Shown here: piece after piece, positions 44,527 through 57,896 of the stretch
How the letters are laid out: each line of letters begins with the position of its first letter
Position numbering within the stretch: the first letter of the stretch is position 1
Source: an uncultured archaeon
GTDB lineage: Archaea; Asgardarchaeota; Thorarchaeia; Thorarchaeales; Thorarchaeaceae
Direction: 5' to 3'
Assembly (NCBI GenBank): GCA_964473825.1
Contig: CAYYQL010000001.1
Span: forward strand, 96,001-160,000
Length of the DNA stretch: 64,000 bases
Translations under genes and position numbers: made by a program
Notes under the pieces: model-generated
What the model was told of the DNA's origin: nothing
The model's input: the letters and a program-made list of their open reading frames with translations, nothing else
The model's database searches: none

Positions 44527-45483
44527 CTAATGGGAAGCAGTGGCAGTTTCTGCCTCTTCGCGTGCCTTGAGGCGGTTCATCTTCTCTAACACACGGCGTA
44601 TATGATCAGTCATGTGACTCGGAACCGTCACTCGATAATCGGAAGGCAAGTCTTCTAAGACATGAAGAATCTTCTCAAGAGTAATCCTCTTCATAGTCCT
44701 ACATACTGCAGTCGGCTTTGCAGCCATGATTATCTTGTCAGGATGATCAGCCTGAAGCTGCTCTACTAAGCCTAACTCAGTGGCTATGATGAACTTTCGG
44801 GCTGAAGACTCAGCAACAACCTGAACCATTTTCCCCGTCGAACCAACAATATCCGATACGTCTTGAACCTCCGGAGGACATTCCGGATGGGCAATAGCAA
44901 TAGCATCAGGATGCTCGTCCTTCAGTCGAGTGATATCGTCTGGCACGAATTGGAGGTGAACATAGCAGCTCCCGCGAGGTTCTATGTCTACAATTTCACA
45001 GTCAGTCTGCCTCCGAACATACTCAGCTAGATTCCTGTCTGGACCGAAGAGAACCTGTGAAGCACCAAGAGATTCGATGACCTCGACGGCATTGCTGGAA
45101 GTGCATATGACGTCACATTCGGCCTTGGTCTCTGCAGTCGTGTTGACATAGACTACTACTGGAGCATCAGGATACTCTCTCCGTCGTGAACGAATCTTCT
45201 CAGGATGGATCCAAGCAGCCAAGGGGCAAAGAGCATCTGAATCCGGGATGTAGACCGGGATGTCCGTCAAGACAGCCGACATTTCTGCCATAAATCGTAC
45301 CCCTGCAAAGATGACCATATCAAAGCCCTCAATCTCTGATGATTTCCTAGCGAGCTGCAGTGAATCACCAACGAAATCTGCTATCTGTTGCACTTCAAGC
45401 GTTTGATAATTGTGAGCTAGGATGAGTGCATTACGCTTTGCTTTCATTTCGACAATGCGTTTCTGAAGTTCGTTGAGTTTCAT
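44527..45483 (-). CDS. nadA: Quinolinate synthase
   Basis: LAHNYQ, GDSLQL, GVRFMAE, CPLA, YVNT, CTSSNA, CYVH, AHPEC and CRTMK, including the three Fe-S cysteines. Confidence 0.95.
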   Translation of the reverse strand: MKLNELQKRIVEMKAKRNALILAHNYQTLEVQQIADFVGDSLQLARKSSEIEGFDMVIFAGVRFMAEMSAVLTDIPVYIPDSDALCPLAAWIHPEKIRSRRREYPDAPVVVYVNTTAETKAECDVICTSSNAVEVIESLGASQVLFGPDRNLAEYVRRQTDCEIVDIEPRGSCYVHLQFVPDDITRLKDEHPDAIAIAHPECPPEVQDVSDIVGSTGKMVQVVAESSARKFIIATELGLVEQLQADHPDKIIMAAKPTAVCRTMKRITLEKILHVLEDLPSDYRVTVPSHMTDHIRRVLEKMNRLKAREEAETATASH

Positions 45484-45542
45484 CCTTGGTCAAATCCGTC
45501 ATAATTAAGCATCAAAGGGGGTATTTTAACAAAATCTCAACC

Positions 45543-45607
45543 GGCAATAATTGACCCATCAATGAAGCCTCGGCAATAATTGCCCAAGAGTGTGAGTGTA
45601 ATCACTC
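45543..45607. promoter_or_regulatory. Candidate operators between divergent nadA and NAD-kinase-wHTH genes
   Basis: GGCAAT-A-ATTGAC (45543-55), perfect GGCAAT-A-ATTGCC (45572-84) and GAGTG-TAAT-CACTC (45594-607). Confidence 0.55.
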
Positions 45608-45692
45608 TTACAATTTGGCACTCAATTTAAGAGGGTAAACTCAAACGTCAAGACACGGCCCCGTCTGGGAGGAATGAAACACGAAGATTGGT

Positions 45693-46742
45693 TTGATTTC
45701 CGGGAATGAGTCAAGCATGATTCAGGACGCCAAGTCAGTCCTGTACCTGTTGAATCAGGAGGGGGCCGACGTCATTCTGGAATATGCGCTGGCAGAAGCC
45801 TTAGGTTCGTCGGGTACACAGCTTGATGAGATAGATGCGGATATCCTGGCTATCGTTGGCTCTGACCGAACAGTCCTTAACACGCTACTGAAGATGGGCG
45901 ACTCCCCAATCCCGATTCTGCCCATTTCTTCGCGAGGGCAGCCAGACTTCTTCTTTGACGTTACAACAGGCAATTTCGAACTTGCCGTCGAAGACTTGAT
46001 TGCTGGCGAGTGGACTGAAGATCATCGTTCTCGGCTTTCAATCACTGTTGGCGATAGGGTATTTCCATCCGTACTCAATGAGGTGGCCATCTTCGCGAAA
46101 CGTAATGCTACACTGATTAGGTATTCACTGAATCTCGATGGAGAGGAATTCTGGAAAGACGGTAGTGACGGCCTTATCATAGCCACTCCTACCGGGAGTA
46201 CAGCCTACTCCTTGAGTACAGGTGGTCCCATAGTGCTATCTCCTGCCTCTGTTCTCTCTGTGATACCGGTGAACAGCACAAATCCAGCAAGAAGACCACT
46301 TATTGTATCAGACAATGTAGTAGTCGAGATTCGCAACCTGACCAGCCCGGTCATGGTAGAGGCTATACTAGATGGGCAGCTGAGGCATAACGTGAACTCT
46401 GGCCCGATCATTGCTAGAAGAGCAGATAGCGATGCAATATTCGTGAAACTTACTGAAGAGAGAATTGCCGCTCTACGCGGCAAGCTGCAAAAGAAAACAG
46501 ACATCCTTGAGGATCTTGCTCAAGATCTACCTCCCAGTGCGAAGCTCGTACTCAAAGTGCTGGAATACCATGAAAAACTGACAGCCAGACAGATTACAGA
46601 GGAAACCATGCTATCTGCGAGAACAGTAAGACATGCTCTCTCCATCCTGATGGCTGAAGGACTGGTCAAGAAGCACCTGTCACTCCGCGACAGCAGACGA
46701 GGACTATTTATGGCTGTCAAGCCAATCGAGCGCCAATCCTAG
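45693..46742 (+). CDS. NAD(+) kinase-like protein fused to a C-terminal winged HTH
   Basis: VLNEV, DGLIIATPTGSTAYSLSTGGP and LDGQ are present; the GGDG motif reads GSDR. C-terminus LPPSAKLVLKVLE...TARQITEETMLSARTVRHALSILMAEGLV is a wHTH. Confidence 0.85.
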   Translation: MISGNESSMIQDAKSVLYLLNQEGADVILEYALAEALGSSGTQLDEIDADILAIVGSDRTVLNTLLKMGDSPIPILPISSRGQPDFFFDVTTGNFELAVEDLIAGEWTEDHRSRLSITVGDRVFPSVLNEVAIFAKRNATLIRYSLNLDGEEFWKDGSDGLIIATPTGSTAYSLSTGGPIVLSPASVLSVIPVNSTNPARRPLIVSDNVVVEIRNLTSPVMVEAILDGQLRHNVNSGPIIARRADSDAIFVKLTEERIAALRGKLQKKTDILEDLAQDLPPSAKLVLKVLEYHEKLTARQITEETMLSARTVRHALSILMAEGLVKKHLSLRDSRRGLFMAVKPIERQS

Positions 46743-46755
46743 TAGATGATAAACC

Positions 46756-48891
46756 ATGACACTAATAGAACAACTCCGGGAAGATGCCTCCACAAAAGTG
46801 ATTCAGGATTTCTTCTCCCGGGTCTCGGCACATTCTTCATCCGAAGGAGGATCTGCTGTTTCAGACTTGGAGGGGCCATTGAAACGAAGCATGGAAATTG
46901 CAGTCTTACAGGCCAGAGAAGCCATCGATCAGGATATCGAGGGATTAGAACATGGTGAGAAGGTGAGAGAAACCTTACGCAAAATCTTTCTGAGCGAGGT
47001 AGACGGATTATCGTTGCAGGAATATCTCGATGCACTGGCAATGTGTTGCTATGGTTATATCTTCGGAAATTTCGATGAGGAAGACCTTCGATATGTATAC
47101 CGATACTCTCTCGGGAAGCTCCCTCATCAAGGCGTAGATACGCTTCTGAAGAGGGCCCTTCTTCTCATCGAAATCGCATCTGGAAAGGACGCGAGGCAGG
47201 CAATGACTTGTCTAAGAGAATGGATTGCGTTCTTGGGATCTCCCTACTGTATGCCGGAGGATTTCAAAGAACCTGCCACAGAACTTGGCTTGAATCTGGG
47301 AACAGCCCTGGAATCTGATGACTTCAGACTCACAGATTCCATCCGCAGATATCCGGAGTACTTGGAGGAGGCTCTGCGGGGCAAGGAATACTTGGATGTC
47401 TATAAGGCAACTCGAAGCTGGCTGCCTGACGTGCTGTCATCTAGGATTCTAGGTATATTCCGAAAGAGAGTCAATCAAGAAGCACAAGAGAAGATTGGCC
47501 CAGACACAGGTGTTTCAGAGGCATATGCTGTCATTCAGAGAGTCTATAAGAAGAGGGAATTCATGAGTGCTGAAGGTAGAGTACTGCCCATCCGCCTGCA
47601 AGATCTTGATTCGCCACCTCCTCCTGAAGCAGTTGAACCCGTCCTCTTTGAGATGATTCCACAGAAACTGCGAGTAGAACTGATGTCGTCAATTGCGTAT
47701 TCTAGAAAGACCAAGCAAGTAGAGATAATATTCCTTGGTGGGCCAGAAATTGGCAGAAGTGGCATCTTGGTGAGGACCGATACCAGTGCCATCCTCCTTG
47801 ATTACGGCCTTTCAGTTGCTAACCAGAGAATCCCTGAATGGGTTCCTGAACTTGAGATGATCGACTCTGTGCTTATCACACACTCACATCTTGATCACGT
47901 TGGAGGACTTCCTGCACTCTATGAGCACTATTCGGGGAAGTGGTGTGCAAGCGGGGTCACAGGGGCAGTCTCGATGACTCTTCTTGAGGATGCCCTCAAG
48001 GTAGGGACTCCACTTCCGCCAAGACGCAATGATAAGTATGACATGGTCTCGTGGTTCAATCGGACGAACATAGACAAAGTCAAGAGAAACTACGTACAAC
48101 TAGAAACGGGGACAGCAAGCGAATTAGCAGGAGGGATTGTTGTCACCCCGATTGAGGCAAGACACATTCCCGGAAGCTTGGCTTTCATCGTGGATGTGGA
48201 GGGAACCAGAATTCTCTACACAGGCGACTTCAATCTTGACAAATCCGTTCTCTTCCACGGGGCTACACTACCTACAGACTGTGATTTGACCATCTTTGAT
48301 GGCACATATTGGGAAAGGGAGGATTTCGACAGAAGACAGGTATCTGACCAGGTCTCGCAGACCATAGCCAGACACGGTCCAGTCATTATTCCAACCTTCG
48401 CCGTTGGCAGGTCACAGGAAGTCCTTGTCATGCTGGACGAACTCGGGATAACCTCATCGAGAAACGTGATTGTGGCCGGCATGGCAGAGCGAGTGACCAA
48501 GCTGACAGGGTACGATGGCGACTGGACAGGCATGAAAAAGAACAAAGTCGTTCTCGAAGATGACGACATTCTGGTGGCTGGAGGCGGAATGCTCGACGGC
48601 GGCTTTGCCAAAATGCACTATAATGAGCATCGACATAACCCAGATGCAGCTGTTATCTTGTGTGGGTACCTTGCACCACGCACAACTGGATGGAATCTCT
48701 TGCATGGACACGAAGATCACAAGTGTGCTGTTGAATATGCAAGGCTTAGTGCCCACTCATCAGCCTCAAGGCTTACAGAGTTCGTTGCTTCTTGCACGGG
48801 CAAGAAGGCCATGGTTCATACTCCAATCAAGAAGACCGGTGGCGATATCCTACTACCCCAATATAGGGAGAGGATCGTGCTTGACGTCTAG
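46756..48891 (+). CDS. Beta-CASP/MBL ribonuclease-like protein with ~320-aa N-terminal extension
   Basis: FLGGPEIGRS, LLDYG, THSHLDHVG, HIPGS, YTGDF, DGTY, FAVGRSQE and LSAH motifs. Confidence 0.85.
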   Translation: MTLIEQLREDASTKVIQDFFSRVSAHSSSEGGSAVSDLEGPLKRSMEIAVLQAREAIDQDIEGLEHGEKVRETLRKIFLSEVDGLSLQEYLDALAMCCYGYIFGNFDEEDLRYVYRYSLGKLPHQGVDTLLKRALLLIEIASGKDARQAMTCLREWIAFLGSPYCMPEDFKEPATELGLNLGTALESDDFRLTDSIRRYPEYLEEALRGKEYLDVYKATRSWLPDVLSSRILGIFRKRVNQEAQEKIGPDTGVSEAYAVIQRVYKKREFMSAEGRVLPIRLQDLDSPPPPEAVEPVLFEMIPQKLRVELMSSIAYSRKTKQVEIIFLGGPEIGRSGILVRTDTSAILLDYGLSVANQRIPEWVPELEMIDSVLITHSHLDHVGGLPALYEHYSGKWCASGVTGAVSMTLLEDALKVGTPLPPRRNDKYDMVSWFNRTNIDKVKRNYVQLETGTASELAGGIVVTPIEARHIPGSLAFIVDVEGTRILYTGDFNLDKSVLFHGATLPTDCDLTIFDGTYWEREDFDRRQVSDQVSQTIARHGPVIIPTFAVGRSQEVLVMLDELGITSSRNVIVAGMAERVTKLTGYDGDWTGMKKNKVVLEDDDILVAGGGMLDGGFAKMHYNEHRHNPDAAVILCGYLAPRTTGWNLLHGHEDHKCAVEYARLSAHSSASRLTEFVASCTGKKAMVHTPIKKTGGDILLPQYRERIVLDV

Positions 48892-57780: not shown

Positions 57781-57896
57781 TTTCTTGTCAGAATCACCGT
57801 CAGACTCCTTAAAATAATATCGGCAATTCTTGCTCCAATAGAGCTAGGACCTCATGCAATGGTTAGTTTTATGTCAAGGAACCTGTCATCTATGAA

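Follow-up and report, generated by a model that had tools for sequence, protein, structure and literature searches.

A 64,000-nt stretch of the genome of an uncultured archaeon of the family Thorarchaeaceae (contig CAYYQL010000001.1; the whole stretch is referred to below as the window, and all coordinates are window positions) encodes a protein in which a nicotinamide adenine dinucleotide (NAD) kinase fold is followed by a C-terminal MarR-type domain of the winged helix-turn-helix (wHTH) kind. The gene for this fusion protein is divergent from nadA, which codes for quinolinate synthase, and two palindromic candidate operators are located between the two genes. The fusion protein is probably an NAD(P)-sensing pseudo-kinase that serves as a transcription factor of nadA and is derived from a duplicated NAD kinase. 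Its fold, the state of its sequence motifs, its paralogs, the synteny of the locus, the conservation of the operators, and the co-occurrence of operator and fusion gene were all observed and are described below. The principal features are as follows.

44527..45483, minus strand: nadA, quinolinate synthase, 318 aa (PF02445, E value of 9.7e-101), the predicted regulated gene
45681..46742, plus strand: NAD kinase-fold/wHTH fusion gene, 353 aa when read from ACG 45681
45858..45872, plus strand: GSDRT replacing the kinase motif GGDGT, aligned by phmmer to the GGDG of the P. aeruginosa NAD kinase
46077..46082, plus strand: NE motif, an NAD contact (invariant Asn followed by Asp or Glu in 120 of 120 homologues and 30 of 30 diverse fusions)
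46185..46208, plus strand: TPTGSTAY, conserved region II, an NAD contact (exact in 117 of 120 homologues; role from PMC8553519)
46524..46700, plus strand: C-terminal MarR-type wHTH (PF12802 in 26 of 26 family members scanned)

The assignment of nadA is supported by its score against the NCBIfam model NF006878 (350 bits, with a cut-off of 294).

Kinase-like domain

Every NAD kinase is described as conserving GGDG, NE/D, and region II, with the Asp of GGDG acting as the catalytic base, and GGDGT is found in 124 of 127 archaeal NAD kinases (PMC8553519, PMC3769651). Of the GGDG loop, the fusion protein retains the first Gly and the Asp alone (GSDR). The original prediction, which read GSDRT in place of GGDGT alongside intact NE and TPTGSTAY motifs and a wHTH at the C terminus, was correct on each of these counts. 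In the Pfam scan of the 349-aa version of the frame, NAD_kinase_C (PF20143) matched residues 128 to 238 (E value of 3.7e-20) and MarR_2 (PF12802) matched residues 278 to 336 (27.3 bits, with a cut-off of 27), although PF01513 was not detected.

Among the 120 closest homologues, the second position of the loop is Ser in 117 and the fourth is Arg or Lys in 113. The N[DE], TPTGSTAY, and DGQ motifs are essentially invariant in the same set, and the Gly, Ser, and Thr of region II are invariant in all 120 proteins. Random decay of the loop is ruled out by this fixation of GSD[RK] in 113 to 117 of the 120 homologues. On a wider scale, GGDG is kept in 8 of 8 sampled canonical Asgard NAD kinases and 4 of 4 of the 377-aa relatives extracted (see below) but in just 5 of 30 diverse fusions, all 30 of which keep NE or ND and nearly all of which keep region II. 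By this pattern, the NAD pocket is under selection, and the phosphoryl-donor loop has on several occasions been freed or put to a new use. The states of the loop in individual lineages (with f1 to f27 denoting Asgard families as labeled anonymously by the search tool) are listed here.

Thorarchaeota (f1): GSD[RK]
f2: GND[KR]
f15: GDDG
f20: GRD[RG]D
f5: GD[TAS]G
f16: GGAA
f22 and f14: fully degenerate
f8 and one Micrarchaeota member: GGDGT, intact
One Geothermarchaeota member: GGDGD

The two-domain NAD kinase fold was recovered in an AlphaFold2 model built from a 37-sequence alignment, with a mean predicted local distance difference test (pLDDT) score of 88.8. In this model, the kinase fold spans residues 1 to 256 and is followed by linker helices (residues 259 to 280, of low confidence at 267 to 277) and by the winged helix (residues 285 to 345). 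The top Foldseek matches in the PDB were the NAD kinases 4hao, 2an1, and 7qvs, with E values of ~1e-24 and template modeling (TM) scores on the target of 0.83 to 0.85 (for 4hao, an E value of 1.5e-24 and a TM score on the target of 0.83 over 265 aligned columns). None of the solved NAD kinases listed was aligned beyond the kinase fold, the alignments covering at most 303 of the 353 residues of the model. Scores against the NCBIfam equivalog models for NAD kinases were far lower than those expected of the enzyme: the best, against NF002984, was 138.3 bits (with a cut-off of 326), and none of the 18 models listed, whose cut-offs are 211 bits or more, was reached. With its altered donor loop and preserved pocket, the fusion protein most likely senses the NAD(P) pool instead of serving as the NAD kinase of the cell, and its kinase activity would have been lost.

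Winged-helix domain

In the AlphaFold2 model, the wHTH comprises helices at residues 285 to 296, 302 to 309, and 313 to 325 and strands at residues 329 to 333 and 341 to 345. When this domain was scanned in isolation, its score against PF12802 rose to 30.7 bits. The PPSAK...LTQKEI...RTVRYAL stretch is kept down to 25 to 30% overall identity, and at the same level of divergence the recognition helix region, P-x-RTVR-Y/N/H-AL, is kept across families. Unlike the stand-alone MarR proteins of ~150 aa with their flanking dimerization helices, the wHTH of the fusion protein is a module of ~65 residues at the C terminus that follows a linker helix, so that any dimerization would come from the kinase fold.

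Many stand-alone proteins of ~80 to 125 aa match the wHTH profile of the fusion with E values of 1e-18 to 1e-25 (P0154 to P0278), including a haloarchaeal one whose annotation is ArsR-family regulator. Given these matches, the wHTH module was presumably recruited from a large archaeal family of small wHTH proteins.

Paralogs and phyletic distribution

The genome that contains the window (an assembly of 3.27 Mb, 95.7% complete) carries two more genes for proteins of the NAD kinase fold. A separate canonical NAD kinase, the existence of which had been named as a check on the original prediction, is encoded on contig C11 (301 aa, with an intact GGDGT), and a 377-aa relative, also with GGDGT, is encoded on contig C7, making it the third such gene. 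These two genes rule out the fusion protein as the sole NAD kinase of this organism. A canonical NAD kinase is found alongside the fusion in this genome and in most fusion-bearing Thorarchaeota genomes. The 377-aa type, which we take to correspond to COG3199, is also present in other Asgard genomes (L068, L070, and L081). On contig C7 (L003, 727-2625), its gene is located 15 nt upstream of a gene for a 249-aa protein that, judged from its sequence, resembles DUF62/S-adenosylmethionine (SAM) hydroxide adenosyltransferase. In one Asgard genome of family f8 (G007, 96% complete), a fusion with GGDGT is the only standard-length NAD kinase found in a PF20143 search, a pattern that fits an ancestral bifunctional enzyme and regulator.

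Matches extending through the wHTH were detected in nine Asgard families in a sample of 201 genomes, and within this sample the fusion is encoded in about two-thirds of the genomes of the Thorarchaeota family. A profile of the wHTH and linker, when searched against 1.84 billion representative sequences, retrieved ~40 clusters of fusions (318 to 358 aa) as well as many related stand-alone wHTH proteins of ~90 aa. The named fusion members outside the Asgard group come from Bathyarchaeota, Geothermarchaeota, Micrarchaeota, and Methanobacteriota, which rules out an Asgard-only distribution. In the source databases, fusion proteins are annotated as NAD kinase, sugar kinase, MarR-family regulator, or hypothetical protein. 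In a quick maximum likelihood tree, 7 of 8 canonical Asgard NAD kinases were placed apart from the fusions; with its unresolved backbone, the tree is compatible with a single origin of the fusion or with several.

Candidate operators and promoters

The region between nadA and the fusion gene, which is followed by a metallo-beta-lactamase/beta-CASP gene (see below), contains the following elements.

45522..45529, minus strand: TATA-like box of nadA, TATTTTAA on the plus strand and TTAAAATA when read in the direction of nadA, 38 nt ahead of its ATG
45531..45541: conserved spacer of 12 nt, AAtctCAAnc, that separates site 1 from the TATA box of nadA, kept also in loci without the fusion
45543..45555: site 1, candidate proximal operator GGCAATAATTGAC, an imperfect palindrome with a conserved GGCAA half and a variable right half
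45572..45584: site 2, candidate distal operator GGCAATAATTGCC, a perfect palindrome GGCAA-N3-TTGCC
45594..45607: local palindrome GAGTG-TAAT-CACTC, in a length-variable, unconserved part of the intergenic region
45625..45631, plus strand: TATA-like box ATTTAAG of the fusion/beta-CASP unit, conserved as ATTTAAG[TA]G

Sites 1 and 2, whose starts are 29 bp apart, are the two copies of GGCAAT-A-ATTG(A/C)C that had been recognized in the original prediction. The pattern GGCAANNNTTGMC has 3 matches in the window versus 0.13 expected from shuffled sequences, and none of 100 shuffles reached 3. The orthologous intergenic regions of Thorarchaeota have a common order of elements, namely TTTTAA (TTAAAA in the nadA sense), the 12-nt spacer, site 1 (GGCAA-N3-TTGAC), and site 2. 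When read by eye, the same two-site layout is seen in all 25 aligned loci; the 29-bp spacing was scored in 19 of them, and the remaining six either were out of register or received a score of 30 bp. Site 2 reaches 2.0 bits at 9 of its 10 core columns (four loci with one mismatch are mis-registered in the alignment), and the TTTTAA box is conserved at ~1.0 to 1.4 bits per column. The ATTTAAG box is located 6 to 63 nt downstream of site 2 and is kept before the beta-CASP gene where the fusion is missing. Because the 12-nt spacer is constant and the distance to ATTTAAG is not, the geometry of the sites is fixed with respect to the nadA promoter and free with respect to that of the fusion gene. 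The spacer itself, being kept in loci without the fusion, is probably a core-promoter element similar to the B recognition element (BRE) and not part of an operator.

The palindrome GAGTG-N4-CACTC, which had also been put forward in the original prediction, is present in the window. It is not conserved in the orthologous intergenic regions, which rules it out as a third operator and probably places it outside the regulatory system.

In other Asgard families, f2 and f15 have the same two-site layout at 29 to 30 bp, and f5 has a distal GGCAA-N3-TTGCT together with a weaker site ~14 nt upstream of a TTTAAATA box. In f16, the 86-nt region upstream of the fusion (L038 and L039) contains an everted palindrome, TTGC-TTAA-GCAA, whose half-sites are oriented oppositely to those of the Thorarchaeota operator; this may be a form of the operator particular to that lineage.

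Co-occurrence of the palindrome and the fusion gene

The presence of the fusion gene next to nadA varies within the Thorarchaeota family, and 30 nadA loci from this family were compared for the presence of the palindrome.

Fusion (in one case, a remnant) adjacent, 19 loci: site 2 between -99 and -104 relative to the start of nadA, matching 9 or more of the 10 core bases
No adjacent fusion (genera g2, g5, g6, g9, and g10), 9 loci: best match of at most 7 of 10 core bases within up to 300 nt
Unlinked second nadA copy in the fusion-bearing genomes G027 and G098, 2 loci: perfect site at -101, with a second site 29 bp away
Locus cut by a contig end, 1 locus: site present, neighboring gene not visible

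A genome-wide search for the fusion in 6 of the 9 genomes without an adjacent copy found none. At several of the loci without the fusion, nadA directly faces the beta-CASP gene. The losses are spread over five genera, and fusion-bearing members are also present in three of these (g2, g6, and g9). In G152 (L104, C17, 2606-2752), from one Thorarchaeota genus, a wHTH-coding remnant of the fusion that lacks a start is located between nadA and the beta-CASP gene, and site 2 carries a single mismatch; the locus gives the impression of gene loss under way.

Where the fusion is absent, both TATA-like boxes are still present, as are the spacer and the half of site 1 that reads TTGCC. A TTGCC-G[GT]TTGA[GA]ATT stretch and the TTAAAA box, for example, persist upstream of nadA in L090, L095, and L110. 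The stretch kept in this way is probably part of the core promoter. In site 1, the half nearer the promoter could be a BRE-like core-promoter element or be bound by another factor.

Linkage to NAD synthesis genes and predicted regulon

In Thorarchaeota, every locus with enough flanking sequence shows the same gene order, consisting of a HAD hydrolase gene, nadA on the reverse strand, and the fusion and beta-CASP genes on the forward strand. This block represents inherited synteny and is weak evidence on its own. The neighbors of the fusion gene across Asgard families are as follows.

f1, f2, and f15: divergent nadA
f5: divergent nadA-nadC operon in 8 of 9 fetched loci
f20: nicotinate/quinolinate phosphoribosyltransferase-family gene, directly downstream on the same strand
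f16: nicotinate/quinolinate phosphoribosyltransferase-family gene, convergent
f8, f22, f14, and one f5 locus: no adjoining NAD gene

The linkage to NAD synthesis genes holds when checked for conservation, as six Asgard families place the fusion next to nadA, nadA-nadC, or a nicotinate phosphoribosyltransferase-family gene. No other regulator gene was seen in the local block.

In the 3.27-Mb genome, GGCAA-N3-TTGCC has 11 perfect copies, 10 of which are within long open frames, which leaves site 2 as the only intergenic one. In ~298 kb of crudely defined non-coding DNA, 9 sites with at most one mismatch were found versus 8.8 expected, and among these 9 the nadA pair alone is perfect or tandem. 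With the number of non-coding near-sites matching chance, a wider regulon was not found. The search for palindromes upstream of nadB (C7), the nadC operon (C2), and nadE (C20), which had been suggested as a check, returned background matches only (at most 8 of 10 core bases), as did the regions upstream of a nicotinate phosphoribosyltransferase-like gene (C51) and the canonical NAD kinase gene. The original claim that the fusion controls de novo NAD synthesis and its own gene can be retained for nadA and for the fusion/beta-CASP unit, which constitute the predicted regulon, and not for nadB, nadC, and nadE, which lack the site. One further near-match in the window, GGCAATTCTTGCT at 57822-57834 (9 of 10 core bases), follows a TTAAAATAA box at a distance of 5 nt within a short piece of non-coding DNA; it stands alone, without a partner site, and the number of such sites matches chance.

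Proposed mechanism and alternatives

That a repurposed kinase with a wHTH domain would control nadA through the palindromes, as originally proposed, gains support from paralogy, the conservation of GSD[RK], linkage, and the co-occurrence of palindrome and gene. In the mechanism that we infer, DNA binding by the fusion protein, its ligand, the loss of catalysis, oligomeric bridging, and the sign of regulation would come together in the following way. The kinase fold would keep the NAD(P) pocket (the Asp, NE, and region II), with the phosphoryl-donor loop remodeled to GSD[RK], and the C-terminal MarR-type winged helix would read GGCAA-N3-TTGCC. NAD kinases are dimers or tetramers with the NAD site at the dimer interface (PMC8553519), so that a ligand bound at this interface could act directly on the geometry of the wHTH and would thereby alter the binding of DNA. 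The two sites could be occupied by two wHTH pairs belonging to one oligomer, which would explain their separation by 29 bp, or about three helical turns. Transcription of nadA would be activated when the sensed nucleotide, which may be NAD+, NADH, NADP+, or NADPH, is low, and the fusion would also control its own (and the beta-CASP) promoter. Activation is favored because the proximal site is placed upstream of the TATA box of nadA at a distance of 12 nt, a position typical of archaeal activators such as RbkR, the archaeal riboflavin kinase/wHTH regulator (see below); the preference over repression is a slight one.

The same factor could instead be a repressor, with the ligand-bound protein shutting off nadA in the manner of the bacterial NadR, NiaR, and NrtR proteins. 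This alternative is the strongest, with a probability somewhat short of even. Both sites are located upstream of the nadA TATA box, neither over nor downstream of it, and RbkR sites that are found 1 to 12 nt upstream of promoter elements are read as activator sites (PMC5397151), which speaks against repression of nadA; on the other side, a dimer on site 1 would reach near the nadA BRE, and at three Thorarchaeota loci site 2 is just 6 nt from the TATA box of the fusion gene, which fits autorepression. As far as the titles and abstracts of the respective papers tell, all characterized bacterial NAD regulators are repressors.

The replacement of both flanking glycines of the loop (by Ser and by Arg or Lys), fixed in this lineage, and the description of GGDG as conserved in all NAD kinases (PMC8553519) bear on the proposal that the fusion is a bifunctional trigger enzyme, i.e., an active NAD kinase that also regulates nadA, on the pattern of RbkR, BirA, and NadR, with NAD, ATP, and NADP modulating its DNA binding. 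The scores far under the NCBIfam equivalog cut-offs also count against it, and so does the co-occurrence of a canonical GGDGT paralog, which is unlike the complementary pattern of RbkR and RibK (PMC5397151). We consider such an enzyme unlikely in Thorarchaeota, notwithstanding that the catalytic Asp and all of the NAD contact motifs are kept, that GGDG(T) is intact in f8 and in the Micrarchaeota and Geothermarchaeota members, and that the ancestral form, to judge from the lack of another standard-length NAD kinase found in G007, was probably bifunctional. Least probable is that another regulator reads the palindromes, the wHTH serving protein contacts or other DNA and the linkage to nadA being mere inherited synteny, because, even with the whole HAD-nadA-fusion-beta-CASP block syntenic in Thorarchaeota (which makes adjacency weak evidence) and part of site 1 persisting without the fusion, the perfect palindrome is gone in at least 5 separate genome groups that lack the fusion, it occurs at unlinked nadA paralogs only in fusion-bearing genomes, NAD gene linkage recurs with nadA-nadC and a nicotinate phosphoribosyltransferase-family gene in distant families without the Thorarchaeota synteny, and the block has no other regulator gene.

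Several points weigh against the sensor and transcription factor interpretation that we prefer. The fusion family is known from sequences and models alone. The catalytic Asp of GGDG is kept, so residual kinase activity is possible, and the family is not uniformly composed of pseudo-enzymes, since some lineages keep GGDGT and G007 appears to have no separate standard-length kinase. No operators were recognized by eye in f20, f8, f22, and f14. Part of the apparent operator may be core promoter, as half of site 1 and the spacer persist without the fusion, and the two TATA-like boxes are taken to be promoters on the strength of their sequence only. Finally, the Thorarchaeota loci come from closely related genomes and share their synteny, which means that locus counts overstate their independence.

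A more far-reaching version of the preferred interpretation can also be formulated. In it, the fusion would be both the first transcription factor of the NAD kinase fold and the first regulator of NAD synthesis to be described in archaea; the family would be pan-archaeal and ancestrally bifunctional, with catalysis repeatedly lost after duplication; the Thorarchaeota protein would be an oligomeric pseudo-kinase that bridges two operators and activates nadA in response to the NADP(H)/NAD(H) pool; and its gene would have a conserved ACG start (see below). This combination is tentative, and it is doubtful that all of its parts hold together.

Start codon and downstream gene

Two features on either side of the fusion gene complete the description of the locus.

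45667..45672, plus strand: Shine-Dalgarno-like GGGAGG, 8 nt before ACG 45681
46756..48891, plus strand: metallo-beta-lactamase/beta-CASP gene, 711 aa (assigned by Pfam), beginning 14 nt past the fusion stop

The frame of the fusion gene is closed upstream by an in-frame TGA (45675-45677) and yields a protein of 353, 349, or 341 aa depending on whether translation begins at ACG 45681, TTG 45693, or ATG 45717. The 209-bp gap to nadA given in the original prediction is correct when measured to TTG 45693, but the start is most likely ACG 45681, rather than either of the other two codons. In the fusion orthologues, GGAGG is found 5 to 9 nt ahead of the aligned start, and the aligned N terminus, T/M-[KR]-I-G-V-V-S-G, forms strand 1 of the AlphaFold2 model (pLDDT of ~96). 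At this position, 13 or 14 of 29 loci, including the one in the window, have ACG, ~10 have ATG, 2 have TTG, and 1 has TCG. The loci with ACG have no canonical in-frame start between the upstream stop and the ACG, and several of them also lack one within the next 12 or more codons. The spacing of GGAGG and the absence of an available canonical start suggest near-cognate ACG initiation in an Asgard archaeon. ACG-type starts, corresponding to window positions 45667-45695, were noted at L007, L010, L012, L013, L015, L020, L022, L024, L026, L027, and L029; in L020, a TAA stop immediately precedes the ACG. Gene callers choose a Met located 12 codons downstream, which would remove strand 1.

The beta-CASP gene is syntenic across Thorarchaeota, and the ~330 N-terminal residues of its product have no assignment. 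The 14-nt spacing suggests that it is probably co-transcribed with the fusion gene. Because it directly follows the same ATTTAAG box where the fusion has been lost, it may share the promoter and operator of the fusion gene.

Comparison with known regulators

The closest known system is RbkR, the archaeal riboflavin kinase/wHTH protein (Rodionova et al. 2017, PMC5397151). Like the fusion, it combines a kinase of a cofactor pathway with a MarR-type wHTH and includes its own gene in its regulon; its palindromic operators, sometimes two adjacent ones, are located 1 to 12 nt upstream of promoter elements (PMC5397151). Operator placement of this type is also seen here with respect to the promoter elements predicted from sequence. 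Nucleotide ligands of the RbkR kinase domain modulate its binding to DNA (PMC5397151), and the fusion would respond to its ligand in a similar way. The two proteins differ in that the kinase domain of RbkR has the CTP-dependent riboflavin kinase fold, which is unrelated to the NAD kinase/DAGK-type fold of the fusion, and in that the wHTH is N-terminal in RbkR and C-terminal in the fusion. In addition, RbkR is an active enzyme never found alongside RibK, whereas the fusion has an altered loop and co-occurs with a canonical NAD kinase.

Among bacterial regulators, NrtR (Rodionov et al. 2008, PMC2330246) controls NAD synthesis genes and is similar to the fusion in pairing an enzyme-derived effector domain with a wHTH-like domain at the C terminus. 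NAD kinase is not mentioned in the NrtR paper. NrtR is a bacterial repressor of the Nudix fold that is unrelated to the fusion in both sequence and fold, and Pfam finds no Nudix domain in the fusion. The effector of NrtR is ADP-ribose. NadR, the trifunctional enterobacterial repressor, NMN adenylyltransferase, and ribosylnicotinamide kinase, likewise has NAD pathway enzymes joined to a DNA-binding domain and controls genes of the nadA type, according to the summary in the RbkR paper (PMC5397151); it differs from the fusion in its N-terminal HTH, its other enzyme folds, its bacterial origin, and its catalytic activity. NiaR is bacterial, and its fold is unrelated to that of the fusion. The effector domains of NadR (NMN adenylyltransferase and ribosylnicotinamide kinase), NiaR (3H), NrtR (Nudix), and NadQ are all absent from the fusion, whose only listed matches in Pfam and NCBIfam are to NAD kinase and wHTH families. 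Canonical NAD kinases (PpnK/NadK; 4hao, 2an1, 7qvs, 1suw, and 1u0r) share with it the two-domain fold (TM scores on the target of at least 0.8), NE/D, and region II; the fusion is distinguished from them by its altered GGDG loop and by the addition of ~95 residues of linker helix and wHTH. A search of the full-text literature, subscription-only publications excluded, found no description of an NAD kinase/wHTH regulator. The fusion would represent a new transcription factor family of the known type that combines an enzyme-derived sensor with a wHTH.

Implications

The current annotations of these proteins as NAD kinases, sugar kinases, or MarR family regulators are each incomplete and can mislead metabolic reconstructions. 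If the proposed function is correct, the fusion would be a natural NAD(P)-binding DNA switch and a potential biosensor, as well as a clear case of the conversion of an enzyme into a sensor. The presence of intact (GGDGT) and variously remodeled loops in a single family makes it suitable for studying how trigger enzymes become pseudo-enzymes. The control of NAD synthesis in archaea is undescribed in searchable papers, NadR, NiaR, NrtR, and NadQ all being bacterial families; the fusion, if it works as proposed, would provide a concrete, testable answer for Asgard archaea and for several other archaeal phyla.

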